The position numbers were made by a program, and so were the translations under genes. From Candidatus Nomurabacteria bacterium (lineage in GTDB: Bacteria; Patescibacteriota; Minisyncoccia; Phycocordibacterales; UBA9973), in contig JBPOHU010000003.1 in the NCBI GenBank assembly GCA_052035195.1, positions 17,453 through 81,452 of the forward strand: DNA of 64,000 nt. Direction: 5' to 3'. Positions 1 to 57,022 of this stretch are shown here, piece after piece (positions within the stretch are counted from its first letter, which is position 1; the number at the start of each line of letters is the position of its first letter). Under the pieces are notes generated by a model that did no database searches, was not told where the DNA came from, and saw only the letters and a list, made by a program, of their open reading frames with translations.

Positions 1-1471
1 ATAGAGATTGAACGTCTTTATTAACTCCAAAGCTCGCCATATCTTTTCCTTCTGATACTGCATCATCCCAGATACGATTTATGTGAGCTTTTTCTGTTTC
101 TGTAACAGGCCTAGCTTCTTTACAGCTAGTACAAAGTTTTCGTACGAGTCGCTGGGCGATAGAGAGAGTAAGAGCAGAGACCAGTATCTTTGGGTTTACA
201 TCTAGATCAATAAGTCTAGGAATAACACCTTGCGCATTATTAGTATGGAGTGTAGAGAAAACCAAGTGACCAGTGAGCGCACTCTCCACCGCTATCTTTG
301 CTGTTTCTGGATCTCGTATTTCTCCAACCATGATGACATCTGGGTCTTGTCGCAAAGATGATCTGAGTCCTTCTAGAAATGTATAACCTTTTTTGTGATC
401 AGTTTGAGTTTGGGTAATACCCGGTAGGTGGTATTCGATAGGGTCTTCGATAGTGATTATTTTTTTCTCCGGAGAATATATTTGTTGAAGGAAAGCATAA
501 AGCGTTGTTGTTTTACCAGAACCTGTTGGACCAGTGAGAAGTATCATCCCGTTTGGTTTTTTGATTTGTTCAGTAAAGAGGGTATATAAAGGAGTACTAA
601 TACCGAGCTCATCTAGTTTTACGTGAATTGATTTTGGATTAAGAATACGAAGCACGATACTCTCTCCATAGGCTCCAGGAATAAGAGATGTACGGAAACT
701 TATTTCTATTTCTTTTTCGCTACCAATGTCGGGTAGAAATGCACTGAAGCGTCCGTCTTGAGGGTTGCTTGAGATAGTGAGCTTTAACCCTGAGAGAAGT
801 TTGATACGAGTGTTGATGTGTTTATAAGTATCAAAATCAAAGTGTGTAATGACGCGCAACACTCCATCCAATCGAAATCGAAGTTCCACTGTTTCCTCCA
901 TAGGTTCTATGTGTACATCAGAAGCACCGATACCTATACCAGCACCAAGAATTATTTCTAGAATCCTAGAGATGTGTTGTTTGGCATCTTTTTCATTTAT
1001 TGCGAGTTCTATTTCAGATATTGCATCTGCTGTAGTTTTTATTTTTTGACTTAGTTCCTTGAGGACGTTGGGAGCAATATCTAGTCCACCACTGCGACTT
1101 GTTGTAGCGAAAGACAGATCTTGGTAACGACTCCACACCTTTTCAATACTTTTGCGACTAGCCATAACGAATGTCACTACAAAGCCTTTGGCTTCAAGCA
1201 ACTCTTTTGCTTTTATTGCTCCGTCTGCAACAGGGGAACGTACTGCTAGAAAAAGTTTTTTACCAACAAGTTTGTATGGACCCACTTCCATATTTTTAGC
1301 TTCGTCTTCTGTTAGAAGCCTGATAGCGTCATTGTCTATAGACTGAGCTGTTAGATCAATATAAGAAATACCATAAGTACTCCCAGCGAGAGAGGCGATA
1401 AGATTCTCTTCTTCTCCATCGCGGAGCTCTTTGAGACGCTTTTGTTGTTCTTCTTCATCGAAACGGACCAT
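1..1471 (-). CDS. pilB: Type IV pilus assembly / type II secretion ATPase PilB/GspE family (C-terminus runs off window)
   Basis: Reverse-strand translation starts MVRFDEEEQQKRL... at complement 1471; GspE-N-like N domain, Walker A LLTGPTGSGKTTT, long ORF to window edge. Not in ORF track because no stop inside window. Confidence 0.8.
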   Translation of the reverse strand, partial: MVRFDEEEQQKRLKELRDGEEENLIASLAGSTYGISYIDLTAQSIDNDAIRLLTEDEAKNMEVGPYKLVGKKLFLAVRSPVADGAIKAKELLEAKGFVVTFVMASRKSIEKVWSRYQDLSFATTSRSGGLDIAPNVLKELSQKIKTTADAISEIELAINEKDAKQHISRILEIILGAGIGIGASDVHIEPMEETVELRFRLDGVLRVITHFDFDTYKHINTRIKLLSGLKLTISSNPQDGRFSAFLPDIGSEKEIEISFRTSLIPGAYGESIVLRILNPKSIHVKLDELGISTPLYTLFTEQIKKPNGMILLTGPTGSGKTTTLYAFLQQIYSPEKKIITIEDPIEYHLPGITQTQTDHKKGYTFLEGLRSSLRQDPDVIMVGEIRDPETAKIAVESALTGHLVFSTLHTNNAQGVIPRLIDLDVNPKILVSALTLSIAQRLVRKLCTSCKEARPVTETEKAHINRIWDDAVSEGKDMASFGVNKDVQSL

Positions 1472-2788: not shown

Positions 2789-4711
2789 ATGAGAAAAAAA
2801 TTTATGAAACAATTTATTTATTCAACACTAACTGCATTTTTTGGTCTAGCTCTATTGGCTAGCCCTGCTTCTGCAGCTGCAGTGTTCAATAGTCCGGGCG
2901 AAATGCCGACTGTTACTGTTTCTACAGGTACATGTCAGCAAGTTGCTATAAACGGATGTTGGCAACCAACAGCCACAGGTAGTGCAGATGGCACTATTGG
3001 TGTGCATATCTTTTATCACAATACAGGTAGTACTGCCGCACAAGGCACAACTATCCGTATAAGTCCTCAAGTACAAGGACCAACAACTTCTGCTTCTTTT
3101 AGTGGAAGTGTTAGTGCTACAAATGCATCAACAGTTTCTGGAAATGCATCAGTTAGTATTTCAAGCTCACAAACAGTGACCTTCATTGATGCTAAATGGT
3201 ACCCAGGAGCAAATAGTGCAGGAAGCGCTGTTAGTGGAAGTGAATTATTCGGAAGTGGTTTTAATGTAGGGACAGTAGGTGCCGGAGATTACGGTAAACT
3301 TGTTGCTCGATTTAAAATCTCAAACGTAATAGTAGTTCAAAACTATCAGTGTAATGACAACATCGATAACGATGGGGACGGTCTTCGTGACTACCCAAGT
3401 GATCCAGGTTGTTCATCTTCTACAGATAATGATGAGTATGACCAAGTTAATACACAATGTGTAATTGATAGCTTCTATGCTTCACCTACATATGTAACTT
3501 CTGGTGGATACACAACACTTTATTGGAGTACAACAGGTTGTGACTATGTAACTATCGACGGGGTGTCTTACCCAGTAGACGGTTCAGGATCATTCGGTCC
3601 TATCTATAGTTCACGAAACTATGTTCTCCAAGGGGTTCGTGGTGGAGTAAGTCGAACACAAACTGTTTTTGTAACAGTTAATCAAACTCCTACATATACA
3701 TACCAATGTAATGATGGATACGATAACGATGGCGATGGTCTTCGTGACTACCCAGCAGATCCAGGTTGTTCTACCTATAACGATGATAGTGAATACAATC
3801 AAGTTATAAATAACACTCAACCACAAGCTATAACTACTGTCGCTACTATATTAGGACAAAGTTCTGCTCGCCTTAATGGTATTGCAGTTCCAAATTCTAC
3901 ATACAGTACAACAGCATGGTTTGAATGGGGAACAAGTGGTTCTCTAGGATCTAGAACAAATACTCAGTCAGTAAATAACAACTCTAGTACATATATTAGT
4001 GAGGGATTAAACAACCTTACTCCTGGAGCTGTTTATTACTACCGAACAGTTGTTCAAAACCAAAACGGTACTGCTTATGGCGATATCGTAAGACTACAAA
4101 CACAAAAAGGTACTATTACTCCAACTCCAACACCTGTAAAAGTAATCACTAAAGTGGTTAATAGAGATGTTGTTGTTGCCAGAAGTAATGCTTCTTTGTT
4201 AGAGCTACGTGTTGAAAATGTTTATGACAGAATGTGTGTTGGTGGAGAAATGGATTACACTGTTTCTTACAAAAACATCAGTAGTCAAACACTTCAAAAT
4301 GCAGTACTTAGAATTACTCATCCAAAAGAGCTTACATTTATAAATAGCTCAAGAGGAGACTATGAAGTAGTAGATCGAACTGTGACTATCGCTCTTGGAA
4401 ATATTCCAGCAGGTGGAACAGGCTCACTACAAGTTCGTGCACGAGTAAATACAAGTGCTGTTGTTGGAAACCTTGCTGTTACTACAGCAACAGTGGTTTA
4501 TACAAACCCTACTAACAAAGCTCAAGAAGATGCTATAGCATATTCACTAGTTACAGTTTCAAACGACTGTCCAAATACAAACAACTTTGGTGCTAGTGCA
4601 TTTGGTATCTCATCATTTTTCCCTTCAACATTACTCGGATGGCTTATTCTCATCTTGGTCATCCTTGCCCTTATTGTTCTAGGAAGACAACTATATAAAA
4701 AGCGAGACTAA
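2789..4711 (+). CDS. Large cell-surface protein with paired Ca-binding-like DxDxDG repeats, DUF11-like repeat domain and C-terminal TM anchor
   Basis: Start MRKKFMKQF at 2789 with signal peptide (ORF-track start 2519 overlaps the upstream gene). Two copies of QCNDxxDNDGDGLRDYPxDPGCS; C-terminal FPSTLLGWLILILVILALIVLGRQLYKKRD. Confidence 0.6.
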   Translation: MRKKFMKQFIYSTLTAFFGLALLASPASAAAVFNSPGEMPTVTVSTGTCQQVAINGCWQPTATGSADGTIGVHIFYHNTGSTAAQGTTIRISPQVQGPTTSASFSGSVSATNASTVSGNASVSISSSQTVTFIDAKWYPGANSAGSAVSGSELFGSGFNVGTVGAGDYGKLVARFKISNVIVVQNYQCNDNIDNDGDGLRDYPSDPGCSSSTDNDEYDQVNTQCVIDSFYASPTYVTSGGYTTLYWSTTGCDYVTIDGVSYPVDGSGSFGPIYSSRNYVLQGVRGGVSRTQTVFVTVNQTPTYTYQCNDGYDNDGDGLRDYPADPGCSTYNDDSEYNQVINNTQPQAITTVATILGQSSARLNGIAVPNSTYSTTAWFEWGTSGSLGSRTNTQSVNNNSSTYISEGLNNLTPGAVYYYRTVVQNQNGTAYGDIVRLQTQKGTITPTPTPVKVITKVVNRDVVVARSNASLLELRVENVYDRMCVGGEMDYTVSYKNISSQTLQNAVLRITHPKELTFINSSRGDYEVVDRTVTIALGNIPAGGTGSLQVRARVNTSAVVGNLAVTTATVVYTNPTNKAQEDAIAYSLVTVSNDCPNTNNFGASAFGISSFFPSTLLGWLILILVILALIVLGRQLYKKRD

Positions 4712-32924: not shown

Positions 32925-33052
32925 TCTCAATATATAAAAACCCCACTTCGCATAAAGCTACGCGGGGCAAGAAAAAATCCCTCACCTCTACGGTGGGGGA
33001 TTTTTGTTTTGTCTATCAAAAATAAAAAACCCGCATTTGCGGGCTTTGTTTT

Positions 33053-33910
33053 TTATACTGCAACAGGAGCTTTAATCCCCGGATGGGATTGATAGTTTTG
33101 AAGTGTAAAGTCTTCATACTTGAAACTAAAGATATCTTTCACTTCTGGATTGATATGCATCTGAGGTAGAGGAAAAGGTTCCCGTTTTAACTGTGTCATA
33201 ACTTGTTCGAAGTGGTTATTGTAGATATGTACGTCACCGAAAGTATGTACAAAATCTCCAATTTTCAGATTGCATACCTGTGCAATCATCATCGTTAACA
33301 ATGCATAAGAAGCAATGTTAAATGGAACACCCAGGAATACATCAGCACTTCGTTGATAGAGCTGGCAACTGAGTTTTCCATTTGCCACATAAAATTGGAA
33401 CATACAATGACATGGAGCTAACGCCATTTTTGGCAGGTCGGCTACATTCCAGGCGTTTACTATCAACCGCCGACTGTCTGGATTTTTCTTGATTTGATTT
33501 ATCAAATCATTAATTTGGTCAATAGATTTTTTCTCCCAGTGTTCTGGCACTATTTCAGTTTCAAAACCACCACCTACAGGAGTTGCTGGAACAAAAACAA
33601 TATTTTCCCAGCTACGCCATTGTTTGCCGTACACCGGCCCCAGATCGCCGTTTTCATTTGCCCACTCATCCCATATATTTACACCGTTTTCTTTCAGAAA
33701 AGCGATATTGGTATCGCCTTTCAAAAACCAGAGCAGTTCATAGATGATACTTTTGAGGTGGACCTTTTTAGTGGTTACTAGTGGAAAGCCCTTAGAAAGG
33801 TCAAAGCGCATTTGATAACCAAACACGCTTTGTGTTCCGGTTCCAGTCCTGTCACTTTTATCAGTGCCTGTTTCAAGGATGTGTCTGAGCAAGTTTAAAT
33901 AATTTCGCAT
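33053..33910 (-). CDS. thyA: Thymidylate synthase ThyA
   Basis: [15 protein letters not shown]...RTGTGT, active-site region [13 protein letters not shown]. Confidence 0.9.
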
Positions 33911-34019
33911 ATTATTCGTTTTTTTAATGAAGAATCTGTTTCTGATATTAGGTTAACCTAAAGGAAGGGAAAGTCAAAGAGAAAGATGATTTATTCCTTA
34001 AAAATGCTAGAATCGTCAT

Positions 34020-35729
34020 ATGTTAAAAGCACTAGAACAGGGGATTAAAAAAGTAGTAGAGGAGCTCGGCCTGCCTGAGGTGACTTTTTCTCTTGAGCAC
34101 CCAAAGGAGCTCTCTCATGGAGACTATATGACCAATGTAGCCCTGATTGTAGGTAAACAAGAAAATAAAAACCCTATAGAGCTCGCAGGAACTATTGCTA
34201 AAAATCTAAAAAACCAAAATATCGAAGGAGTAGAAAGTATTGAAGTAGCAGGCCCAGGATTTATAAACTTCACACTCAAGCGACAAGTGTTTGTTAAAGG
34301 GTTAGTTGGTGCACAAGATAGTGAGTGGGGTAACACTGATGTATACGCGAACAAAAAGATTTTGATAGAACACTCAAGTCCAAACCTTTTCAAACCATTT
34401 CACATTGGACACTTGATGAACAACACAATCGGTGAAGCTCTCTATCGACTAGCGAAATCTTCTGGTGCACATGCAACTCCTATTTCTTTCCCATCTGACA
34501 TTTCTCTTGGTGTAGCAAAAGCGATTTATATTCTTCTTGAAAAATACGGAGAAGACTTTGTGCCGACTGATGTCTCAGTGCTCGGGGATGCTTATGTCGA
34601 AGGTGTAAGAAAATACCAAGAAGCAGAAGAAGAACAACCATGTGGAAGTATTGTGTATCGAGTGAAAGAAATCGCTGATAATTTATATGCACAAAAAGAT
34701 TCTCCAGAATTTACACTTTTTAATGCATGTAAAAAGTTAAATATTGCATATTTTGAATCAATTTTAAAAAACCTAGGATCTCACTTTGATTCATATATAT
34801 ATGAAAGTGAGGTCGGAGATGATGGAAAAAGAATTGTATTAGAAAATACTCCAAAGATATTCACTGAAAGTGAAGGAGCGGTTGTGTATATTCCAGAAGA
34901 GGGTAGCAAGCTCCATACCGCTGTCTTTATCAACAGCCAAGGAAATCCTACATATGAAGCAAAGGATATCGGTCTTCTTGATTTGAAATTCTCTCGTTAT
35001 CAACCAGATATTTCTATTACTGTCACTGACAATCAACAAACCTCACACTTCCAAGTAGTAGTAGATGCGGCTGGAAAAATAAATCCCGCATGGCAAAACA
35101 ATAGTGTGCACCGAAGTCACGGTCGCATGAGTTTCAAAGGCTCTAAGATGTCTTCTCGTCTAGGCAACGTGCCTCTCGTTGAAGATATCCTCTCTACTGT
35201 TTCAGAAGAGGTAAAAGAGAAAAATCCTGATGTGTCTGAAGAGGTAGCAAAACAGGTCTCTATCGCTGCTATTAAGTTTGCTATCCTTCGTACACAAGCT
35301 GGCAAGGATATAAATTTTGATCCCGATACTTCACTTTCATTCGAAGGGGATAGTGGTCCTTATCTGCAATATACCGCAGTACGAGCCGGAGCTCTTCTTG
35401 AGAAAGGGAAAGCTTTGGGTATCACTCCAAACACTGATACTCCTGTAGCAGGCCTGCCTGCGCAGGCAGGTGCAGAGACACTTGAGAGATTGATTGCTCG
35501 CTTCGTAGAGGTGGCAGGAGAAGCACAAAAGTCATGGGCACCACACTATGTAGTCTCATACCTTCTCGAGCTCGCACAAGCCTTCAACTCCTGGTATGGT
35601 CAAGGCAAGATTGTAGATGCGGAAGATGTGTCAGGTACAGCCTACCGCCTTTCTGTGGTTGCAGCAGCCCGCCAGACCCTCATAAACGGCCTCTGGGTCC
35701 TGGGTATTGAAACTCCTGAGAAGATGTAA
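34020..35729 (+). CDS. argS: Arginine--tRNA ligase
   Basis: HIGH motif SSPNLFKPFHIGHLMNNTIGEAL, ArgRS anticodon-binding C-terminal domain; 569 aa. Confidence 0.9.
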   Translation: MLKALEQGIKKVVEELGLPEVTFSLEHPKELSHGDYMTNVALIVGKQENKNPIELAGTIAKNLKNQNIEGVESIEVAGPGFINFTLKRQVFVKGLVGAQDSEWGNTDVYANKKILIEHSSPNLFKPFHIGHLMNNTIGEALYRLAKSSGAHATPISFPSDISLGVAKAIYILLEKYGEDFVPTDVSVLGDAYVEGVRKYQEAEEEQPCGSIVYRVKEIADNLYAQKDSPEFTLFNACKKLNIAYFESILKNLGSHFDSYIYESEVGDDGKRIVLENTPKIFTESEGAVVYIPEEGSKLHTAVFINSQGNPTYEAKDIGLLDLKFSRYQPDISITVTDNQQTSHFQVVVDAAGKINPAWQNNSVHRSHGRMSFKGSKMSSRLGNVPLVEDILSTVSEEVKEKNPDVSEEVAKQVSIAAIKFAILRTQAGKDINFDPDTSLSFEGDSGPYLQYTAVRAGALLEKGKALGITPNTDTPVAGLPAQAGAETLERLIARFVEVAGEAQKSWAPHYVVSYLLELAQAFNSWYGQGKIVDAEDVSGTAYRLSVVAAARQTLINGLWVLGIETPEKM

Positions 35730-35799
35730 TTGACTTTTTTGTACTTAGTGGTAATATCCACGCAAAGCAATTTTGCAAAAAAAACTAAAATAATTTACT

Positions 35800-36288
35800 T
35801 TGAAAAAAGAAATAGATATTTATTCAGGGGCAACGGCTACTATAAAAAAAATATTTAGCTGTGATAGAAAAGTTAACGAATGGGAGGACAAAAGAGATTT
35901 AAGACTCAAGGAATTGAGAGATATAGTAAAAACTAATATCCAGAGTCTAATTACCGATCCGGTTCATAAAAACTTCTTTAGCGTAGAAACGTTAGGAGCG
36001 CGTTCCTTAAAAGATTTTGATAAAAGCTTTCTCCAAGAAATAGTTAACCACCTAGCATTTAGGAATGGAAAGCTTGAATATGATGGTAGTTATACTACTT
36101 TTAATTTTGATAAAGAAGTACTGGAGAAATCAGGTTTTCATTTTACAGAAAGAAAAGCTAGAGAACTTGCAGCAAGTATTTCCACGGTTCTTAAGGGTGT
36201 TATGGTTGTTGAATTTTCAAATATATTTGATTCTAAGCCTGTTGATTTGGTTCAAATTATTTTTAAAGTTGACCTGATTATCGAATGA
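35800..36288 (+). CDS. Hypothetical protein (ORFan cassette gene 1)
   Basis: 162 aa, cytoplasmic, followed by the GGCCGCATTTGCGGC-T8 terminator module. Confidence 0.45.
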   Translation: MKKEIDIYSGATATIKKIFSCDRKVNEWEDKRDLRLKELRDIVKTNIQSLITDPVHKNFFSVETLGARSLKDFDKSFLQEIVNHLAFRNGKLEYDGSYTTFNFDKEVLEKSGFHFTERKARELAASISTVLKGVMVVEFSNIFDSKPVDLVQIIFKVDLIIE

Positions 36289-36293
36289 TTTAA

Positions 36294-36317
36294 GGCCGCA
36301 TTTGCGGCTTTTTTTTA
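36294..36317 (+). terminator. Cassette boundary module copy 1 (terminator part)
   Basis: ggccgcatttgcggc plus T9; same hairpin as copies at 36715, 37328 and 37897. Confidence 0.6.
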
Positions 36318-36388
36318 TTTGAGATTCACCATGGTTGGCGTGGTTGACTTCCGATTTTTTTAGTGTAGAGTTCTTTAAAATATTATTT

Positions 36389-36709
36389 ATGAACCAAGTA
36401 ATAATCAATGGTTACTCAAGAGAAGGACTTGAGGTTTTAATAAAGGAGTTAAATATTCTTTTATTAAAAAGAGAAAACCTTTTTAAGTTTTCTGGTGTCC
36501 CCAGTAAACCGCTTTCTATTAAACCAGAAATGGTCATAATCCTTCAGGACCTGCTTTCATTTGTAAATGATAACATCAGATGTGGTAGCTATAACAATCT
36601 TGACGGCTGGAAGGAAGAGTTGAACAGGATAGGTGGCCTTTTCTGGTTTAAGGTAAGAATTTATTTTAAGGATTTTCCAGTCCAGCTCAAACCTATTTTA
36701 GGCGATTAA
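36389..36709 (+). CDS. Hypothetical protein (ORFan cassette gene 2)
   Basis: Start MNQVIINGYSREG at 36389 (ORF track 36335); 106 aa. Confidence 0.4.
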   Translation: MNQVIINGYSREGLEVLIKELNILLLKRENLFKFSGVPSKPLSIKPEMVIILQDLLSFVNDNIRCGSYNNLDGWKEELNRIGGLFWFKVRIYFKDFPVQLKPILGD

Positions 36710-36710
36710 T

Positions 36711-36790
36711 ACAAGGCCGCATTTGCGGCTTTTTTTTATTTAGGATTGACTTCCAAACCCTTTCTTGTATTATCAAGAAAAATATTTAAG
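36711..36790 (+). repeat. Cassette boundary module copy 2: terminator hairpin plus promoter TTGACT-16-TATTAT
   Basis: aaggccgcatttgcggc-T8-tatttaggaTTGACTtccaaaccctttcttgTATTATcaag; ~85 nt nearly identical to copy 3. Confidence 0.65.
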
Positions 36791-37318
36791 ATGGAAAATA
36801 AAAAAAAAGATTGTCCTCTTTGTGGGGCAATAGGGGTCATTTCCCAAGAAGAGTATTCTTCTAGTACCATAACTACTCCAGCTCCGAGTGGGACTATTGG
36901 AAACTCAAGGATTGTTCATACAGGTGGTAAATGGGATTTTTCTCATTCAAAGGAATGTAAAAAACTTGAAGGCGCTTTAGACAAAGAAGGTCTTTTGCGT
37001 TTCCATTTGGACAAGCTTGAGGTGTGGCATGCAGACACAAAATCTTTCGAAGATTATAATGATTTGCTGGGTACAAAGAATTTAAAAATTATACCTTATG
37101 CAAAGAGAGAAGAAGGTCGTTGGCTTTATCAGGTTTGTATTCAAGAAATCTACGGCCACCATAGAAAGGAATTGTTTACAAAGGGCAGAGATTTTGATGG
37201 TGCATTTTTTAACCTCAGGCACCGGCTTCTTTGTGGAGAAATTATTGAATTTGACTCCCAGAATAAATTTCAGGTCTTAGAGACGGAATCAAATCCAGAA
37301 ATTTTTCAAATATTTTAG
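36791..37318 (+). CDS. Hypothetical protein (ORFan cassette gene 3)
   Basis: Start MENKKKDCPLCG at 36791; 175 aa. Confidence 0.45.
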   Translation: MENKKKDCPLCGAIGVISQEEYSSSTITTPAPSGTIGNSRIVHTGGKWDFSHSKECKKLEGALDKEGLLRFHLDKLEVWHADTKSFEDYNDLLGTKNLKIIPYAKREEGRWLYQVCIQEIYGHHRKELFTKGRDFDGAFFNLRHRLLCGEIIEFDSQNKFQVLETESNPEIFQIF

Positions 37319-37322
37319 GAAT

Positions 37323-37404
37323 CCCAAGGCCGCATTTGCGGCTTTTTTTATTTAGGATTGACTTCCAAAACCTTTCTTGTATTATCAAGAAAAACTATTA
37401 GCAA
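37323..37404 (+). repeat. Cassette boundary module copy 3: terminator hairpin plus promoter TTGACT-16-TATTAT
   Basis: Differs from copy 2 by 2-3 nt over ~85 nt; TTGACT 37358-37363, TATTAT 37380-37385. Confidence 0.65.
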
Positions 37405-37893
37405 ATGAAAACAATAAAAGAGGCGTTTCTTGTCCTTGTGAAAAAGTACAAGCCGAGAATCTCGGGGCGATTTATTTTTGGGTTTAATCTGCTCGATATA
37501 GATGCTCGAGTAATTCACACCAAAGAATGTTCTGTTTCAGTTTTTTTCTGCGAACTTTTTCTTCGTTCCGGAGGCTACTCTGAAAATGGAGCATCAATTG
37601 TTATTTTCCGAGGTATTATTCCTAACGGGTCGATTTTGGAGGATCCTATTTTGGATATAGAAGATGTTCTTTGTTATATATACAAAGACAGAAACAATGA
37701 GAGTAGGATCGATTGGTGTTTAAAGTCAGAAGTTCTTACTTTTTCTTTAAAAGACACCCCGATAAACCCCTTAAAAAACATTTCACAAAGAGAGGAGGTT
37801 ATTGTTTCTAAGATCATTTGGAAACTCCAAAAACAGCTTTCAAATACGCCAAAAGGGATAGTTCCTTTTCTAAAGAGATTGTTCAAAGATTAA
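37405..37893 (+). CDS. Hypothetical protein (ORFan cassette gene 4)
   Basis: 162 aa, followed by the variant terminator gtcgcatttgcggc-T7 at 37897-37918. Confidence 0.45.
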   Translation: MKTIKEAFLVLVKKYKPRISGRFIFGFNLLDIDARVIHTKECSVSVFFCELFLRSGGYSENGASIVIFRGIIPNGSILEDPILDIEDVLCYIYKDRNNESRIDWCLKSEVLTFSLKDTPINPLKNISQREEVIVSKIIWKLQKQLSNTPKGIVPFLKRLFKD

Positions 37894-37940
37894 AAAGTCG
37901 CATTTGCGGCTTTTTTTATTTGAGAGTAGTATAAAGACCT

Positions 37941-38525
37941 ATGACACACCCAAAAGAAGAAAAAACATATGTAATGATTAAGCCTGATGGAGTTCAGAAA
38001 GGTTTGATAGGAGAGATTATTAAGCGTTTTGAACAAAGAGATCTTAAGATTGTGGCGCTTGAAATGTTCATGCCTACAGCCGATATGATAGATAGTCACT
38101 ATCCAAAAGATGAGGCTTGGATAACTCGTCTAGGAAGTAAGACTTTGGCTACTTATGAAAAGTACAATATGGATGCTATGGCTGATTATGGAACTACTGA
38201 CCCTTCTGTTATTGGTCCAAATATTAGAAAATGGATTTTGGACTATATGACCTCAGCTCCACTTGTAAAAATGGTTGTACAAGGTGTTCATGCTGTTGAT
38301 ACTGTTAGAAAAATAGCAGGTGTTACTATGCCATATTTAGCAGATATGGGAACAATAAGAGGGGATTTTTCTGTTGATAGTCCTGCTCTTGCCAATAAAG
38401 AAAAAAGACCTGTTATGAACATCGTTCATGCATCTGAAACTCCAGAGGAAGCAATGCACGAAATAAAGTATTGGTTTGGTGATAAGGAATTGATGAACTA
38501 CAAGCGTCATGGAGTAGATTTCTAA
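37941..38525 (+). CDS. ndk: Nucleoside diphosphate kinase (with internal insertion)
   Basis: YVMIKPDGVQKGLIGEIIKRFEQRDLKIVALEM, active-site NIVHASE; 194 aa. Confidence 0.8.
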   Translation: MTHPKEEKTYVMIKPDGVQKGLIGEIIKRFEQRDLKIVALEMFMPTADMIDSHYPKDEAWITRLGSKTLATYEKYNMDAMADYGTTDPSVIGPNIRKWILDYMTSAPLVKMVVQGVHAVDTVRKIAGVTMPYLADMGTIRGDFSVDSPALANKEKRPVMNIVHASETPEEAMHEIKYWFGDKELMNYKRHGVDF

Positions 38526-38809: not shown

Positions 38810-39226
38810 ATGAGTAAAAGACTTCTTTTATCAGCATGCGTTCTAATATTTTTTATTTGGGCTATAAATAGCTTGGCCAATATGTTTTATTGGTATAGCG
38901 CTATGTGGTGGTTTGATATTCCAATGCACATTTTAGGAGGAGCTTTCTTGGCTTTACTATTGGGGGCAATATTTTTTAAAAAAATAGTTTCTTTAAATAA
39001 AAAAGAAATCCTAATAACTATTTTATTAGGTGTTGTTATTGTCGGAGCGGGGTGGGAAGTATTTGAATATGTAGTTCAACATATGATCAAAGGTCTTCCT
39101 CTTGCAAACTTTCCTGATTCTATAAAAGATATGTTGATGGATATTATAGGAGGATTTTTGGCATCATTTTTTGTATTAAAGGCTGTTAAGCGGTACAATA
39201 CAAGTCATGCAATCACAAATCTCTAA
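38810..39226 (+). CDS. Hypothetical integral membrane protein
   Basis: 138 aa, ~4 TM; weak VanZ-like resemblance only. Confidence 0.45.
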   Translation: MSKRLLLSACVLIFFIWAINSLANMFYWYSAMWWFDIPMHILGGAFLALLLGAIFFKKIVSLNKKEILITILLGVVIVGAGWEVFEYVVQHMIKGLPLANFPDSIKDMLMDIIGGFLASFFVLKAVKRYNTSHAITNL

Positions 39227-52866: not shown

Positions 52867-53011
52867 GCTTATTTTACAAAAATAGCTTTTTGATGTAGTA
52901 TATTGCCCATAGCCCCCGTTTCCTGCTGAGCCTAAAGTGCCAGTGGGACATTGGTCCGAAGCGGGCTTTTAATTAATAAAAATCATTCTAGCTCTAGTCT
53001 AGAATTTATAC

Positions 53012-53515
53012 ATGTCAGAAAAACAAACACGTTTGTACGAATGTGGATTTATCCTTGTTCCTACAGTTCCTGAGGCAGAAGTTCCTCAAGCAGTTGATTC
53101 TCTTAAAGCCCTTATAGCAAAAGAGGGAGGAGAAGTATCTTCTGTTGGTACACCAGAGTATATTGATCTTGCTTACACTATTGAAAAAACTTTTGGTAGT
53201 AAAAAAAGTAAGTATTCTCAAGGATACTTTGGTTTTATCAAATTTGAAGCGAGTCCAGAGTCTCTTGAAGCTCTTAAAAAAGCTCTAGATGCTGAAGTTC
53301 AAATTGTTAGATACTTGCTTATCAAAACAGATCCAACAAATACTATTTCTTTCAAAAAACCAAAAATAGAAGCAAAAAGAGGGGATGCGTCAGTTATTGA
53401 TGATGCAGACCTAGAAAGTGATGAATCAGTAGATGATATTATTGCAGCACACGAAGCTCTGCCAGATCTTCTTCCAGAAATTGAAGCAGATGCAGAAGTT
53501 AAGGATGCGGAATAA
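53012..53515 (+). CDS. rpsF: 30S ribosomal protein S6
   Basis: MSEKQTRLYECGFILVP... with acidic C-terminal tail. Confidence 0.8.
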   Translation: MSEKQTRLYECGFILVPTVPEAEVPQAVDSLKALIAKEGGEVSSVGTPEYIDLAYTIEKTFGSKKSKYSQGYFGFIKFEASPESLEALKKALDAEVQIVRYLLIKTDPTNTISFKKPKIEAKRGDASVIDDADLESDESVDDIIAAHEALPDLLPEIEADAEVKDAE

Positions 53516-53569
53516 TTATTCACTCTTTCGTCTTGCACCTACTAGATAACAGCTATAAACTTAAAATAT

Positions 53570-54031
53570 ATGTATCTAAATAAAGTATTTCTAATAGGTA
53601 ATCTTACTCGTGACCCAGAACTCAAGGCTCTTCCTACAGGAACTAAAGTAGCTAGCATTTCTCTTGCTACGAATCGTACCTGGAAAGATCAAGGTGGTGC
53701 CAAAAAAGAGGCTGTGGAATATCACAATGTTGTAGCTTTTGCTAGACAAGCAGAGGTTATAGCTCAGTACTGTAAAAAGGGAAGTTCTTTGTATATAGAA
53801 GGTCGTATCCAAACTAGAAGTTGGGATGCAACTGACGGAACAAAGAAATATAGAACAGAAATAGTTCTAGAGAATTTCCAATTTGGTCCTAAGGGTGGTG
53901 GATCTGGAACAGGAGCTCCTATGACAGGCCCTCACTCTGATGCCGAGGCTCCACAAGCTAGTGCCAAGCCAGACTTAGATACTATTGAATATCCAGAAGA
54001 AGAGATAAACCTAGAAGATATACCTTTCTAG
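53570..54031 (+). CDS. ssb: Single-stranded DNA-binding protein
   Basis: MYLNKVFLIGNLTRDPELKALPTGTKVASISLATNRTWKD OB-fold, Gly-rich linker, acidic tail ...EDIPF. Confidence 0.85.
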   Translation: MYLNKVFLIGNLTRDPELKALPTGTKVASISLATNRTWKDQGGAKKEAVEYHNVVAFARQAEVIAQYCKKGSSLYIEGRIQTRSWDATDGTKKYRTEIVLENFQFGPKGGGSGTGAPMTGPHSDAEAPQASAKPDLDTIEYPEEEINLEDIPF

Positions 54032-54070
54032 TCTCTAAAAACTAATTAATAATTTGCTAATAACTAACTT

Positions 54071-54271
54071 ATGAAACAAGATTACTTTAATGCAAACAGT
54101 ATTCATCATATCGACTATAAAGACGTTGATAGTTTGAAGAAGTTTCTTAACCCAAACGCTAGAATCAATTCTCGAAAGCGTACAGGTCTTACTGCAAAAA
54201 ATCAGCGCTCTCTTGCTGAAGCAGTAAAGCGTGCTCGCTTTATGGGACTGCTTCCATTCGTAGCTAACTAA
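54071..54271 (+). CDS. rpsR: 30S ribosomal protein S18
   Basis: [50 protein letters not shown]. Confidence 0.8.
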
Positions 54272-54273
54272 AT

Positions 54274-54306
54274 AAAAAAACCTCTCAATTGAGAGGTTTT
54301 TTTATT
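54274..54306. terminator. Bidirectional terminator between rpsR and efp
   Basis: aaaaaaacctctcaattgagaggttttttt. Confidence 0.65.
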
Positions 54307-54890
54307 TAGTTAACCCGCTCTACGTATTCACCAGTTTCACTATTGATTCGGATTTTTTCACCGATGTTTATAAATAGTGGCACATTGATAGTCGCACCTG
54401 TTTCAAGTGTCGCTACTTTGTTTCCACCCGTTACACTTGCTCCTTTGATAGCTGGGGGAGCATCTACTACTTCAAGCTCAAGCTTGATAGGTATTTTAAC
54501 TCCTATAACTTGTTCTTCATCATCATCATTTGTATAAATAATAGTTTCTATTTCGCTATTCGCTTTAACAAAACGCATTTTATCTCCCACGATTTCTTCT
54601 TTGAGAGTAAATCGGTTTGATGGGTCTTTGACATCACAGAACCATATTTCATTTTTGTTCTTATATAGGAACTTTACCGGTCTTGTTGTTATATCTGCTT
54701 CTTCTGCTTTTTCTGAAGAGCCAAATGAGATTTCAGCCACACGACCAGTTAGTAGGTTTTTTAGTTTAGTAGCATTTACCGGCTTTCTTTGTTGTTTTCG
54801 AAACACATGTGAGGCTAGTACTTCATGAGGATGACCATCCCAGACGATTATCTTGTGTTCTTTGATTTCATTGTATTCAAGCATTGACAT
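54306..54890 (-). CDS. efp: Elongation factor P
   Basis: 194 aa with three OB/KOW-like domains, ...KPVNATKLKNLLTGRVAEISF... Confidence 0.8.
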   Translation of the reverse strand: MSMLEYNEIKEHKIIVWDGHPHEVLASHVFRKQQRKPVNATKLKNLLTGRVAEISFGSSEKAEEADITTRPVKFLYKNKNEIWFCDVKDPSNRFTLKEEIVGDKMRFVKANSEIETIIYTNDDDEEQVIGVKIPIKLELEVVDAPPAIKGASVTGGNKVATLETGATINVPLFINIGEKIRINSETGEYVERVN

Positions 54891-55004
54891 AGTTTATTTT
54901 TCGGGGTTATTTAGTCCTAATAGGGAAGATTGTAGCTTAAATATTAAATAAACTCAACAATACAAGCTTTTTCTTTATTTATATAAAAATAGTATAATTT
55001 AAAT

Positions 55005-55892
55005 ATGAATAAAGAGGGTGAGCACGGTTTCACTATTATTGAGATTATAGGAGCTTTTGCTATTATAGGTCTTATTTTAAGTGTTGTAATTTCAGGTATT
55101 CAAAAATCAAAAGATAAAAAGTCAGACTTAAGTGTCAAGGCTGAGTTAGCAGAAATACAAATAGATGTCTCCGAATACGATATTGCTCCAGGTGTTACAG
55201 ATTTTACTGCGGCATTTAACTCTAAGGGTGTTTCTCAAAAATTACTAGACATAGCTTCTTCTTTGGGAGTTTCTCCAGGGGAATATGAGTATGTAGCTAC
55301 TGCTGATGAATTTGTTGTTATTTTCCCTTTAAAAAAGAGTGATACATTTTATTGTGTTGACTCAACTGGTATTTCATCTGAAGTAACGGGCTTATTAAAT
55401 ATAACAGGCCCTCGTAGTTGTAGTAATGCTACTAGATATGTAGCAGTGTCTGGATGGGAAGATGAAGATGCAGGATTACCTGGTGGCGGAGGCGGGGGTG
55501 GTGGAGGAGCAAATACTCCTCCGGTAATTACTTTAGTCCCACCTGAAATTGTCGGTTATGGAGTCAACGCTGATTTTTTTGATTATAATGGGCAAAATGT
55601 TTATGGTGTCCTTCCTGCTAGTTTTCCTGAGATATCATATACAGCAACTGATGCAGAAGATGGTGATTTAACATCTGAAGTCGTTATAGTATTTCCAGAT
55701 ACCTATAGAGTACACTTACTACCTAAAGATGGTCCATTACTTACTTTTTTTAAAAAAATTGTTTACCCAACATCTGTTGATGCAAAAGGAGGGCCTAGTT
55801 GTTTAGCTATAACAACTCGTATGTACCAAGTCACTGATAGCGGAGGACTCACCGCTACTGCTTATAGAGATTTTACAGCTGTTTGTAGTTAA
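55005..55892 (+). CDS. Type IV pilin/pseudopilin-like protein
   Basis: Class III signal peptide MNKEGEHG/FTIIEIIGAFAIIGLILSVVISGI (cleavage after G, Glu at +5), poly-Gly linker GGGGGGGGG, C-terminal globular domain. Confidence 0.7.
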   Translation: MNKEGEHGFTIIEIIGAFAIIGLILSVVISGIQKSKDKKSDLSVKAELAEIQIDVSEYDIAPGVTDFTAAFNSKGVSQKLLDIASSLGVSPGEYEYVATADEFVVIFPLKKSDTFYCVDSTGISSEVTGLLNITGPRSCSNATRYVAVSGWEDEDAGLPGGGGGGGGGANTPPVITLVPPEIVGYGVNADFFDYNGQNVYGVLPASFPEISYTATDAEDGDLTSEVVIVFPDTYRVHLLPKDGPLLTFFKKIVYPTSVDAKGGPSCLAITTRMYQVTDSGGLTATAYRDFTAVCS

Positions 55893-55945
55893 ACTTAAAT
55901 AAAATAAAAATACCCTTCAATTGAAGGGTATTTTTATTACTTAAT
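55893..55945. terminator. Bidirectional terminator between pilin gene and recA
   Basis: aaaaataccctt-caattg-aagggtattttt. Confidence 0.65.
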
Positions 55946-55948
55946 TAT

Positions 55949-57022
55949 TTATTCTCCTGCACTATCAGCTACAACTTCTTTCATTCTTTTTCGAACGTCT
56001 TTTTGTATTTGATCTCGAACTTTTGTATTTTCTCTCATAAAGACTCGAGTAGCATCATATCCTCGTCCAAGTTTTACTTCCTCCTCGCCCAGAGAAGCTT
56101 TAGCGGAGTTGGGTTTGACTTCAGGTTTGTATGTATAAGAAGTACCATTTTTTTCGATTACTCCAAGCTTTTCTCCTAGAGCAATTAGTTCTCCTTCAAG
56201 AGAAATACCTTCTCCATAGATGATATCAAATTCTGTTTGTTTAAAAGGGGAGGCGACTTTGTTCTTTACTACTTTTACTCTTGTTCGACTTCCGACTACC
56301 TCTTCACCCTTTTTTATTTGAGCAATACGACGAATATCAAGACGAATAGAAGTATAGAACTTCAAAGCCTTACCACCTGGAGTAGTCTCAGGATTACCAA
56401 ACATCACTCCTATTTGCATACGTATTTGGTTTATAAATATCACTACAGTTTTAGATTTGTGTACTATAGCAGTTAGTTTTCGGAGTGCCTGACTCATGAG
56501 ACGAGCTTGTTTACCCATGTGTTGTTGCCCCATGTCTCCTTCGATTTCATCTTTTGGGGTAAGAGCAGCTACTGAGTCAACAACTATTACATCTATCTTG
56601 CCACTACGAACAAGGGATTCACATATCTCTAGGCCTTGTTCACCAGTGTCTGGTTGAGATATGAGAAGTTCTTGGATCTTTACTCCAATGTTTCCAGCAT
56701 ACTCTGGGTCCATGGCATGTTCTGCATCAATATATGCACATACTCCACCAAGCTTTTGAGCTTCAGCTACGATGTGTAGAGCTAGGGTAGTCTTACCAGA
56801 GGATTCTGGTCCAAATATTTCCATGATACGACCTCTAGGTACTCCTCCGATACCGAGAGCAATATCAAGCCCGATAGAGCCAGTAGGGATGACACTTAGA
56901 TTAACCTTTGGTGTATCACCTAGCTTCATGATCGCCCCTTCTCCAAATTTTGTTTGAATACTTTTTATTGTGTCATCTATCGATGAACCTGTTTCTTTAG
57001 GTGTTGTTGATTTCTTTGCCAT
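55949..57022 (-). CDS. recA: Recombinase RecA
   Basis: Walker [14 protein letters not shown]1/L2 loops, overall RecA; 357 aa. Confidence 0.95.

Follow-up and report, generated by a model that had tools for sequence, protein, structure and literature searches.

Single-gene cassettes with repeated terminator and promoter modules form a variable array between argS and ndk in a Candidatus Nomurabacteria genome

Four small genes of unrelated sequence lie between argS and ndk

The window analysed here, a 64-kb stretch of DNA taken as a whole, carries four small genes on the forward strand at 35800–37893, in the gap between argS and ndk (Table 1), as the earlier note on this DNA had described. The array was found at 99.6–100% nucleotide identity in four independent assemblies and is therefore not an assembly artefact. 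The four proteins bear no resemblance to one another, as had been claimed: blastp among them gave no match at E<1e-3, and profile–profile comparison with hhalign gave a probability of at most 29%, on which a common origin for g1–g4 was rejected. Nor do they belong to a recognisable family, since searches of Pfam, PADLOC, PHROGs and NCBIfam returned nothing significant for any of them, and the same was true of PDB sequence searches with g1, g2, g4 and the g3-family profile. No clear housekeeping homologues were found for g1–g4, and an Rfam scan of 35600–38100 gave sub-threshold matches only, driven by the terminators.

Table 1. Features of the argS–ndk locus and the related rplK/thyA terminator, in window positions.
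Feature	Position	Strand	Description
rplK/thyA terminator	33026–33047	.	Bidirectional; same core, CCCGCATTTGCGGG
argS	34020–35729		Left flank of the array; stop codon 35727–35729
g1 promoter-like site	35730–35757	+	TTGACT-16-TAATAT with TG; first base directly after the argS stop
g1	35800–36288	+	162 aa, TTG start; lineage-restricted ORFan
T1	36292–36319	+	Terminator copy 3′ of g1, AAGGCCGCATTTGCGGC-T8-ATT; −12.2 kcal/mol
g2 upstream region	36328–36371	+	Small hairpin CCATGGTTGGCGTGG, then promoter-like TTGACT-16-TAGAGT
g2	36389–36709	+	106-aa ORFan
T2	36713–36740	+	Terminator copy 3′ of g2
g3 standard module	36746–36790	+	−35 TTGACT 36746–36751; TTTCTTG/CAAGAAA repeat 36761–36780; −10 TATTAT 36768–36773
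g3	36791–37318	+	175 aa; N-terminal zinc ribbon and C-terminal dsRBD-like domain
T3	37326–37353	+	Terminator copy 3′ of g3
g4 standard module	37358–37404	+	Second copy; −35 37358–37363; inverted repeat 37373–37392; −10 TATTAT 37380–37385
g4	37405–37893	+	162-aa lineage-restricted ORFan
T4, resident terminator	37894–37940	+	AAAGTCGCATTTGCGGC-T7; overlaps the putative ndk promoter
ndk	37941–38525		Right flank of the array; ATG at 37941

The description of all four genes as ORFans stands for g1, g2 and g4 and falls for g3, which has about 23 homologues. Homologues of g1 are confined to P0028 (98% identity) and P0025 (83%), with a distant member in L039_c3 at 29%; the TTG start codon is found in 3/3 members of the family and dN/dS is 0.28. 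An AF2 model of g1, built on a three-sequence alignment, reached a pLDDT of 38 and is unusable. Besides g2 itself, the g2 family contains only P0027 (42%), the leading cassette behind argS in the relative L039, while g4 (dN/dS = 0.18) has homologues only in cluster P0024 (81%), the first cassette in L003. Across the cassette genes dN/dS ranges from 0.18 to 0.61, as against 0.07–0.08 in argS and ndk, and on this basis we take the cassette genes to be real. Together with the homologue searches, these substitution ratios mark g1, g2 and g4 as ORFans restricted to the lineage and subject to purifying selection.

Residues C8, C11, H52 and C56 are invariant in the zinc ribbon of the g3 family, which has about 23 members, and the C-terminal domain follows the alpha-beta-beta-beta-alpha order of a dsRBD-like fold. 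A homologue of g3 with 94% identity is present in the collection searched; comparison of the g3 fold with BFVD gave no significant match. A Pfam match of g3 to the Lar restriction-alleviation protein (E=0.19) was dismissed as generic zinc-ribbon noise, with two of 22 family members matching.

Terminators recur after all four genes and a promoter module at two of them

The hairpin terminator AAGGCCGCATTTGCGGC-T7/8 follows g1, g2 and g3, and g4 ends with a one-base variant, AAAGTCGCATTTGCGGC-T7. The predicted RNA hairpins, at −11.4 to −13 kcal/mol, stand ahead of U-runs; between argS and g1 there is no terminator. The core of this element, CGCATTTGCG, occurs five times in the 64 kb against an expectation of 0.01, the fifth copy lying at 33032 inside the bidirectional rplK/thyA terminator, where the same hairpin had already been noticed. 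The putative ndk promoter that overlaps T4 consists of TTGCGG (37904–37909) and TAGTAT (37927–37932), separated by a 17-nt spacer. This combined T4/ndk-promoter unit is also present in cassette-free relatives and is taken as the right-hand recombination boundary of the array. In the cassette-free relatives the resident terminator ends argS, and the −35 (TTGCGG) of the putative ndk promoter may likewise come from it.

The earlier note had placed each gene in its own near-identical terminator–promoter cassette, which is correct for all four terminators and, as regards promoters, for g3 and g4 but not for g1 and g2. The boundaries upstream of g3 and g4 are indeed nearly identical (88% over 99 nt) and match exactly over a 44-nt module in which a single position is free; this module includes TTGACT-16-TATTAT and is present in two copies where none would be expected. 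This standard module has the form TTGACT-N10-TTTCTTG-TAnTAT-CAAGAAAAA, in which an inverted repeat with arms of 7–11 bp encloses the −10 box as its 6-bp spacer; the g3 leader that follows is A-rich and lacks a Shine-Dalgarno sequence. The g2 promoter shares with the standard module only the −35 TTGACTTCC, and the g1 leader is kept in strain L038. Other promoters are thus used by g1 and g2 of the window, and also by the X+ and Nudix cassettes elsewhere, so that the module is not universal.

The standard module occurs twice in the 64-kb window, and matches among 14 genome loci are confined to the argS–ndk hotspot. A metagenome collection gave 11 exact matches, two of which have the −35 and an intergenic context, both in argS–ndk hotspots, and 2.9 million viral contigs gave 0 matches. 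Every true copy found therefore sits in this hotspot, in a search that covered parts of each genome. Across copies, hardly any change is seen in the −35 or in either repeat arm, and the 10 nt between them are free; this 10-nt spacer moves with neither the upstream nor the downstream ORF. The identity between modules is 0.86 when the genome group is the same and the genes differ; between different genomes it is 0.73 within a gene family and 0.74 across families. By this measure, the boundary modules track the genome and not the cargo.

The relative L003 has the repeat as a perfect 11-6-11 palindrome (AGTTTTTCTTG TAGTAT CAAGAAAAACT); the repeats of the window are perfect only as 7-6-7, their extended arms matching at 7–8 of 11 positions. 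The arm variants CAGGAAA and CGAGAAA face an unchanged TTTCTTG, without compensatory changes, which is neutral as to protein binding. The invariant inverted repeat that encloses the −10 most probably serves a dimeric regulator as its operator; alternatively, the motif could be constrained as promoter and leader alone. A role for the promoter palindrome as an RNA or DNA hairpin is unlikely, because transcription is predicted to begin about 7 nt after TAnTAT, inside or beyond the right arm, and the variants are uncompensated.

Array content varies between species and between near-identical strains

The array was compared across about 30 related contigs of the Paceibacterota lineage, including ArgS-anchored loci from 14 genomes. 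Its flanks, argS and ndk/RNase J-like, are conserved. Directly after argS comes ndk, with zero cassettes, in L002, L007 and L008, and the other relatives carry one to four cassettes each, in differing orders and drawn from about 11 families, six of which (g1, g2, g3, g4, X and p91) recur across arrays. Inserts different from those of the window occupy the ArgS-anchored loci of L001, L003, L006 and L014, and additional arrays are found in L018, L022, L026, L028 and L039. The hotspot is occupied even in genomes whose ArgS is only 66–89% identical to that of the window, and its flanks are always core genes. Cassette GC (0.32–0.37, versus 0.375 for the window) is near-native and consistent with a gene pool within the lineage.

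The closest relatives allow finer comparisons. Eleven contigs encode a 100% identical Ndk protein, and the ten of these that were listed have four arrays ahead of ndk: g1-g2-g3-g4, X alone, p125-Nudix and p208-p178′-p91. L046 and the window share 2,919 nt downstream at 100.000% identity, beginning at 37892, where the last terminator has its 5′ edge, and yet the cassettes of L046 are different. L037, at 94–97% nucleotide identity to the window, carries g1-T-g3-T-p91 without g2 or g4; its breakpoint lies within T1/T2, the g2 indel being bounded by the terminator repeat. The array of L038 reads g1′-TM72-p91-ndk and departs from the window right after TTGACTTCC, at 36352. Finally, p91 sits behind different upstream genes in L037 and L046, and its cassette is 100% identical in the two, the identity starting at the stem of the upstream terminator. 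These breakpoints all fall in the repeated terminator or promoter modules.

On the strength of these comparisons, we can conclude that the argS–ndk gap is a genuine cassette hotspot, with gain, loss, replacement and reordering both between species and between near-identical strains. The proposal of a recombination-driven variable island with duplicated boundaries is borne out by arrays that differ next to identical Ndk and by breakpoints in the repeated modules; the relatives have zero or different cassettes, and the same four genes in conserved order were not seen. A stable cluster, neither mobile nor variable, in which one ancestral cassette was duplicated in tandem and its coding parts then diverged, would explain the duplicated boundaries inside the window. 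We give this reading scarcely any credence: the families lack sequence or profile similarity to one another, each has orthologues elsewhere in other orders and combinations, and presence or absence varies between strains with 100% identical flanks.

Some observations concern other loci. In L040 a single gene lies between duplicated local terminators in the grpE–dnaK region, and L030 contains triplicated remnants of a gene 3′ end plus terminator in the rpsG–fusA gap. The rplK/thyA terminator of the window adjoins a second variable stretch, with thyA/thyX/DHFR/dut/dcd in relatives.

Recombination across repeated modules as a probable route of exchange

We consider it probable that the argS–ndk site is a chromosomal hotspot which stockpiles self-expressed, moron-like single-gene cassettes exchanged by recombination across the repeated modules. 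A unit comprises a hairpin terminator with its T-run, a promoter module, a short leader without a Shine-Dalgarno sequence and one small ORF, and the array closes with the resident terminator. The modules of 30–100 nt, together with the conserved flanking genes, would provide homology arms for RecA-type recombination, either with the DNA of related strains or among copies inside the array. Recombination within the array would lead to deletion and to gene conversion, the latter being the presumed cause of the concerted evolution of the modules. One dimeric regulator at the shared operator might then serve as a single switch for all cassettes, whatever their cargo. The window contains ORFs that we take, reading their N-termini by eye, to encode RecA and type IV pilus assembly proteins. 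Natural competence has been demonstrated in Saccharibacteria, another group of Patescibacteria (PMC10633639). Homologous recombination is what we infer from the breakpoints inside repeats; site-specific events would look alike.

Such events might come from a cassette system analogous to the integron, with a recombinase that would cut out and insert cassettes of one gene each, acting on the hairpin terminator as on an attC site or on the 11-6-11 repeat as in dif/Xer recombination. In sedentary chromosomal integrons the attC repeats are species-associated (PMC13638679, PMC8352920), and the present array is like them in its unrelated, mostly ORFan single-gene cassettes of one orientation, in boundary repeats that are homogeneous within a species and specific to the genome, and in contents that vary between strains. 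Several breakpoints, moreover, fall exactly where the terminator stem begins on its 5′ side. However, an attC site is an imperfect palindrome of 57–141 bp with RYYYAAC ... GTTRRRY cores, whereas the boundary hairpins here are ordinary intrinsic terminators of 14–30 nt; all five boundaries lack the cores, and neither strand of 35700–38000 contains a core pair. At its flanks the array has argS and ndk in place of IntI and attI, and neither the window ORF map nor Pfam searches of ten unassigned window ORFs yielded a recombinase. Integron cassettes are promoterless (PMC5027507), whereas each cassette here has its own predicted −35/−10 and terminator instead of a shared Pc. The earlier comparison with an integron lacking attC and IntI thus survives as an analogy only.

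A dif site measures 28 bp and consists of a 6-bp spacer between inverted arms of 11 bp each, which is the geometry of the perfect repeat in L003; pdif modules and other Xer-dependent elements are known from Acinetobacter plasmids and as IMEX elements. In common with these, the array has small gene modules without a recombinase of their own and short inverted-repeat sites with a 6-bp spacer, a likeness that lies in repeat geometry. Unlike them, it is chromosomal, its repeat coincides with a promoter −10, and none of its observed breakpoints is in the repeat spacer, their places being behind the −35 (36352) and at the edges of terminators. The breakpoints also lie at several positions (36352, 37892 and within T1/T2) and not at one fixed position, and the 10-nt spacer beside the repeat accompanies neither neighbouring ORF. 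Taking both sides together, we regard a site-specific cassette system as unlikely.

The terminator-flanked gene in L040 and the remnants in L030 do hint at a general insertion at terminators. It is conceivable, though improbable, that they and the array reflect an unrecognised CPR cassette-capture system without IntI or attC, in which an enzyme, or replication or template switching, would insert ORFs at terminators and duplicate the resident terminator in doing so. Captured ORFs would then come to lie behind the common palindromic promoter–operator and be switched together, and the L030 rpsG–fusA and L040 grpE–dnaK genes would be products of the same mechanism. Should a dedicated mechanism lie behind the terminator duplication elsewhere, it would constitute a new gene-capture route.

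Morons are independent transcription units of phage genomes made up of a promoter, an ORF and a factor-independent terminator (PMC3594210), and at the level of sequence the cassettes fit this definition, each being a single ORF with its own predicted promoter and factor-independent terminator, inserted between genes that are adjacent in relatives. The array might accordingly be a phage- or plasmid-derived remnant, either a moron cluster or a decayed integrated element; small ORFans are common cargo in phages, and the Nudix cassette of relatives matches a phage PHROG and PDC-S07. Against this, the array contains no phage structural, replication or integration genes, PHROGs gave nothing significant for g1–g4, the module is absent from the viral contigs searched and g3 lacks a significant structural match in BFVD. 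The cassettes are also near-native in GC, and the same site is used across the whole range of ArgS divergence, with chromosomal housekeeping flanks at all loci and without phage context. A further difference from morons is the tandem arrangement, in which one conserved promoter/operator module is common to unrelated cargo. We consider a phage or plasmid origin highly unlikely.

The locus also resembles the minimal mobile elements of Neisseria (Saunders & Snyder 2002; definition in PMC3787668). In both, the genes found between specific conserved flanks differ among the closest relatives and dedicated mobility genes are lacking; homologous recombination in bacteria with natural competence is the presumed route of exchange. 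The argS–ndk locus differs in lining up single-gene units in tandem, up to four or more of them, with repeated, locus-specific promoter/terminator modules at the bounds of each, in having breakpoints in internal repeats and not in the flanking genes alone, and in its host, a CPR bacterium. With core-genome defence hotspots and flexible genomic islets it shares a fixed insertion point at core genes and a high turnover of small accessory genes, but it has no known defence genes, one gene per unit and repeated regulatory modules. The argS–ndk array is therefore a new variant among cassette-hotspot systems already known.

Significance and possible roles of the cargo

Patescibacteria have tiny, streamlined genomes, and the origin of their strain-level diversity is poorly understood. 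The locus represents a compact means of stockpiling single genes and exchanging them at one fixed position flanked by essential genes, with ready-made expression signals and without a visible mobility enzyme at the locus. As a natural landing pad with a defined promoter, terminator and insertion site, it could aid CPR genetics, and the conserved operator-like palindrome of 20–28 bp should allow its cognate regulator to be found. The rapid turnover of about 11 lineage-specific protein families makes them candidates for host- or phage-interaction functions.

The cargo, as predicted from its sequence, consists of small cytoplasmic proteins that are lineage-restricted and under purifying selection. 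With low confidence, we suggest that these may be strain-specific accessory factors concerned with nucleic acids, nucleotide pools or phage/host conflict, because g3 combines a zinc ribbon with a dsRBD-like fold, cassettes in relatives are Nudix or faintly DUF4406-like, and the neighbourhood is one of dNTP metabolism. The X family of relatives gave faint DUF4406 matches only (E>=0.038) and had no relatives in the PDB. The defence, anti-defence or toxin-immunity role that the earlier note had raised was not supported: PADLOC returned no significant match to defence genes for g1–g4, nor did Pfam or NCBIfam to toxin or antitoxin families. Toxin–antitoxin pairing is likewise not seen, each gene being predicted monocistronic between its own promoter and terminator. 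Among eight cassette proteins from relatives that were scanned, the Nudix protein alone matches a candidate defence family (PADLOC PDC-S07), and the PHROG that it matches is phage MutT/NUDIX.

A four-gene array between argS and ndk

ORF calls and a terminator search confirmed the four small genes (g1–g4) that the earlier note had placed between argS and ndk, each with a common terminator, and neither blastp nor hhalign found any relationship among them. For none of the four did Pfam, PADLOC, PHROGs or NCBIfam give a significant match, nor did PDB sequence searches with g1, g2, g4 and a g3-family profile yield any significant hit. Assembly GCA_964367675.1 and three Logan assemblies, each from a different run, contain the same array at 99.6–100% nucleotide identity; it is not a chimera. 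Relatives by ArgS are MAGs of the Paceibacterota/Nomurabacteria type, from the candidate phyla radiation (CPR), and the window, with its tRNA genes and ORFs which we take from their N-termini to be polA, ruvA, pheST, ileS, metG, recA, ftsK and pilM/N/O-like, looks like an ordinary CPR chromosome. Its cumulative GC skew climbs steadily from 0 to ~53 kb and is then flat and reversing; this turn (~53000–57000), just past which lie the minus-strand ORFs read as recA and ftsK, may mark a replication origin or terminus.

Features of the array and positions of a recurrent promoter-proximal hairpin (L numbers are our labels for contigs of relatives)
Feature	Locus	Position	Strand	Remarks
argS	window	34020–35729		left flank of array
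g1	window	35800–36288	+	162 aa, TTG start
g2	window	36389–36709	+	106 aa
g3	window	36791–37318	+	175 aa
g4	window	37405–37893	+	162 aa
ndk	window	37941–38525		right flank of array; Ndk 194 aa
CCAYG-N5-CGTGG hairpin	window	36328–36343		
CCAYG-N5-CGTGG hairpin	L038	~570–586		
CCAYG-N5-CGTGG hairpin	L022		reverse	directly past argS stop

Terminators and promoters of the cassettes

The anatomy of the cassettes (each a gene with its own terminator and promoter) is modular. Behind the cassette genes stands AAGGCCGCATTTGCGGC followed by 7–8 T, with the variant AAAGTCGCATTTGCGGC after g4, and the hairpins have predicted RNA folding energies of −11.4 to −13 kcal/mol. Five copies of the terminator core CGCATTTGCG were observed in 64 kb (0.01 expected), the fifth being the bidirectional rplK/thyA terminator at 33026–33047 (core ~33030); argS and g1 have no terminator between them. 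The array's last terminator is also found in cassette-free genomes, and the cassettes therefore have the argS stop codon on one side and the ancestral argS terminator/ndk promoter on the other. Each cassette carries a copy of that ancestral terminator, the last of which may double as part of an ndk promoter (TTGCGG-17-TAGTAT, 8 nt 5' of the ATG). Terminator loops are largely genome-specific (ATTT in the window, (G/A)CGT in L003, AACACAAT in L022, TAAT in L039), a few being cassette-specific variants.

The earlier description of the cassettes as near-identical holds for the terminators of all four genes, whereas near-identical promoters are confined to g3 and g4. These two share the upstream module TTTAGGATTGACTTCCAAA(N)CCTTTCTTGTATTATCAAGAAAAA, of which the window holds two copies against 0 expected; the g2 promoter overlaps with it only in TTGACTTCC, and that of g1 begins one base past the argS stop codon. 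In a gap-free alignment of 17 cassette promoters from 11 loci, TTGACT and TTTCTTGTA-TATCAAGAAAAA are near-invariant and the 10 nt in between are free. What is conserved forms an inverted repeat, TTTCTTG/CAAGAAA (a perfect 11-6-11 in L003), whose 6-bp spacer is the −10 hexamer. Mean module identity is 0.86 between different gene families in the same genome group, 0.73 within a family across genomes and 0.74 where both differ; by this measure the module tracks genome rather than cargo. It was not found outside the hotspot (the argS–ndk gap in which cassettes vary) in the first 14 genome loci, nor in 2.9 million viral contigs, and only two of 11 exact metagenome matches have the −35 and an intergenic context, both being argS–ndk hotspots. 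The locus-private palindrome over the −10, conserved far beyond the need of a promoter spacer or initial transcribed region, is best explained as an operator, through which a dimeric regulator would co-control all cassettes.

Only 3 of the 48 window genes have a Shine–Dalgarno-like motif, so that cassette genes without one are normal for this genome; a −10-like box (TGnTAnAAT-like) 5–12 nt 5' of the ATG at many of the 48 starts suggests that window mRNAs are mostly leaderless or very-short-leader. Cassette promoters have a consensus −35 and a ~12-nt leader, and therefore constitute a different class from housekeeping promoters. The g1 family, unlike other cassettes, has a leader of 35–45 nt in all three members, each starting with TTG (window 35800, L038 44, L039 7323), the window and L039 proteins being only 29% identical. 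The tabulated hairpin stands directly 5' of the −35 TTGACTT in a subset of cassettes, mostly those in first or second place in an array.

Turnover between strains and species

Cassettes are present or absent, replaced and re-ordered, with breakpoints within the repeated modules and concerted evolution of the modules; approximately 11 cassette families and at least six arrays were counted in one species-level population. L037, with 94–97% nucleotide identity to the window, has the order g1, one terminator, g3, terminator plus module, and p91 (p numbers approximate the length in residues of cassette proteins of relatives). Here g2 is absent, the edges of the indel being exactly the terminator direct repeat, and g4 is replaced by the different gene p91. 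The order in L038 is g1 (83% amino acid identity), a 72-aa membrane protein, p91 and ndk, and homology to the window ends directly behind the g2 promoter's shared segment at 36352 and restarts at the last terminator (37892). A 100% identical Ndk is encoded by 11 contigs and, among the ten listed, is preceded by at least four arrays: g1-g2-g3-g4, X (a further cassette gene of relatives) only, p125-Nudix and p208-p178'-p91. From 37892 on, L046 matches the window at every one of 2,919 nt (100.000% identity), with entirely different cassettes upstream, and its p91 cassette is 100% identical to that of L037 from the upstream terminator stem on, behind different preceding genes.

Contents of the argS–ndk hotspot in relatives
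Locus	ArgS identity to window	Cassettes
L003	89%	g4 homologue (81%), new gene X
L001	81%	p140, then contig end
L002	80%	none
L022	79%	X, g3 homologue, Nudix
L014	79%	p98, extended X
L039	78%	g2 homologue (42%), X, distant g1 homologue
L006, L026, L028	67–70%	g3 homologue alone
L018	66%	p178
L008	62%	none
L007	57%	none

In L002, L007 and L008 the gap measures 55–95 nt and contains the same hairpin, T-run and ndk −10 box; L002 falls among cassette-bearing genomes when ranked by ArgS identity. Many relatives' contigs start or stop in or beside argS, which is an expected assembly effect of strain heterogeneity.

Cargo proteins

Exhaustive phmmer searches against 1.84 billion representatives returned one homologous cluster each for g1 (83% identical) and g4 (81%), and for g2 only itself and one protein at 42%. 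The 23 homologues of g3 are all unnamed and without Pfam domains; most of those that can be placed are at argS–ndk, with one each in an rpsG–fusA gap (L030), beside grpE (L040) and among small uncharacterised genes near a PemK toxin (L041). Residues C8, C11, H52, C56, C148 and G149 are invariant in the family, and a confident AF2 model (pLDDT 91.3) combines a beta zinc-ribbon part at the N-terminus with an alpha-beta-beta-beta-alpha domain at the C-terminus, a predicted fold from which we read only that g3 may bind nucleic acid or protein. With dN/dS values of 0.28 (g1), 0.18 (g4), 0.61 (g3, few substitutions) and 0.14 (X), and 0.07–0.08 for argS/ndk, the cassette ORFs are genuine genes, and purifying selection on them is relaxed; their GC content is near-native.

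Defence or toxin-immunity cargo, as envisaged earlier, was not borne out, the array having no recognisable defence or toxin-antitoxin genes. Relatives carry a Nudix hydrolase cassette (Pfam 2e-14; PADLOC candidate PDC-S07), X gives a faint DUF4406 signal, and the relatives' neighbourhood includes thyA or thyX, DHFR, dut, dcd and a tmk fragment, so that a nucleotide or nucleic-acid theme of the cargo is possible. By eye, the first visible cassette of L046 (60–690, ~208 aa) looks like a fusion, its N-terminus resembling the p140/p125 family (NPF(D/Q)L motif; L043 3088–3465, L001 11734–12156) and its C-terminus p98 of L014 (850–1146; GLVxGQKI(S/T)L), which suggests domain shuffling among cassettes.

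Mechanism and relation to known systems

Array boundaries lack attC cores, no integrase adjoins the array, no recombinase was found among the window ORFs tested and breakpoints fall at non-fixed positions, all of which makes it unlikely that a site-specific system, integron-like or Xer-like, moves the cassettes, even though such a system would suit the genome-specific homogeneous repeats (as with chromosomal integrons; PMC13638679), the 11-6-11 geometry and the single genes framed by terminator duplications at other loci. We infer instead that DNA uptake, then homologous recombination across the 30–100 nt modules and flanking core genes, would exchange cassettes, while recombination within the array would yield deletions and gene conversion. 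Window ORFs read by eye, presumably recA and pilus genes, would be in keeping with recombination and uptake. Competence has been demonstrated in Saccharibacteria (PMC10633639).

Each cassette unit has the same architecture as a phage moron (PMC3594210); the array is not phage-borne. Nor is it an integron, because three of the four defining features were tested for and are absent. A tandem, strain-shuffled array whose units combine a locus-private palindromic promoter with a duplicated resident terminator appears to be new, as does such an array in a CPR lineage. Genomic islands and the transfer of thyA are described in a recent survey of horizontal transfer among Patescibacteria (PMC12455944); cassettes, integrons and hotspots did not turn up when its text was searched.

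Neighbouring and other variable loci

Ndk identity is only 31–43% in relatives with ArgS and RNase J-like neighbours at 66–89%; it is 80% for L022 and 100% among members of the species. On these figures ndk appears to have been allele-replaced. The Pfam NDK match of the window protein is in two stretches, suggesting an insertion, and a membrane protein (38810–39226) varies like Ndk (31–68% identity). In relatives (L026, L028, L029, L039) the rplK–argS stretch (window 32925–34019) forms a second flexible zone, holding thyA or thyX+DUF1599, DHFR, dut, long dcd, a tmk fragment and small uncharacterised genes in varying orientations, with patchy thyA identity (40–78%).

In L039 a 133-aa uncharacterised gene (1116–1517) splits nusG and rplK, normally a contiguous pair. 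The grpE–dnaK region of L040 (Logan SRR35185575_458778, 2800–3900) has a 113-aa uncharacterised gene with the same terminator, AACCGTTCCGAG(C/T)TTACTCGAGGAACGG-T7, on both sides, a duplicated resident terminator signature like that of the window in a different sequence. The rpsG–fusA gap of L030 (GCA_018062865.1 JAGORK010000002.1, 4190–6760) contains the g3 homologue and three other small uncharacterised genes, an array in which a promoter module particular to it, TTGACAAA...GAGTAGTTTTAGGGTAAA, recurs. The 3' end of rpsG (CCATTTTGCTTGGTA) persists there as three remnants in tandem, each with a terminator hairpin behind it that differs from the other two, and these look like traces of repeated insertions.
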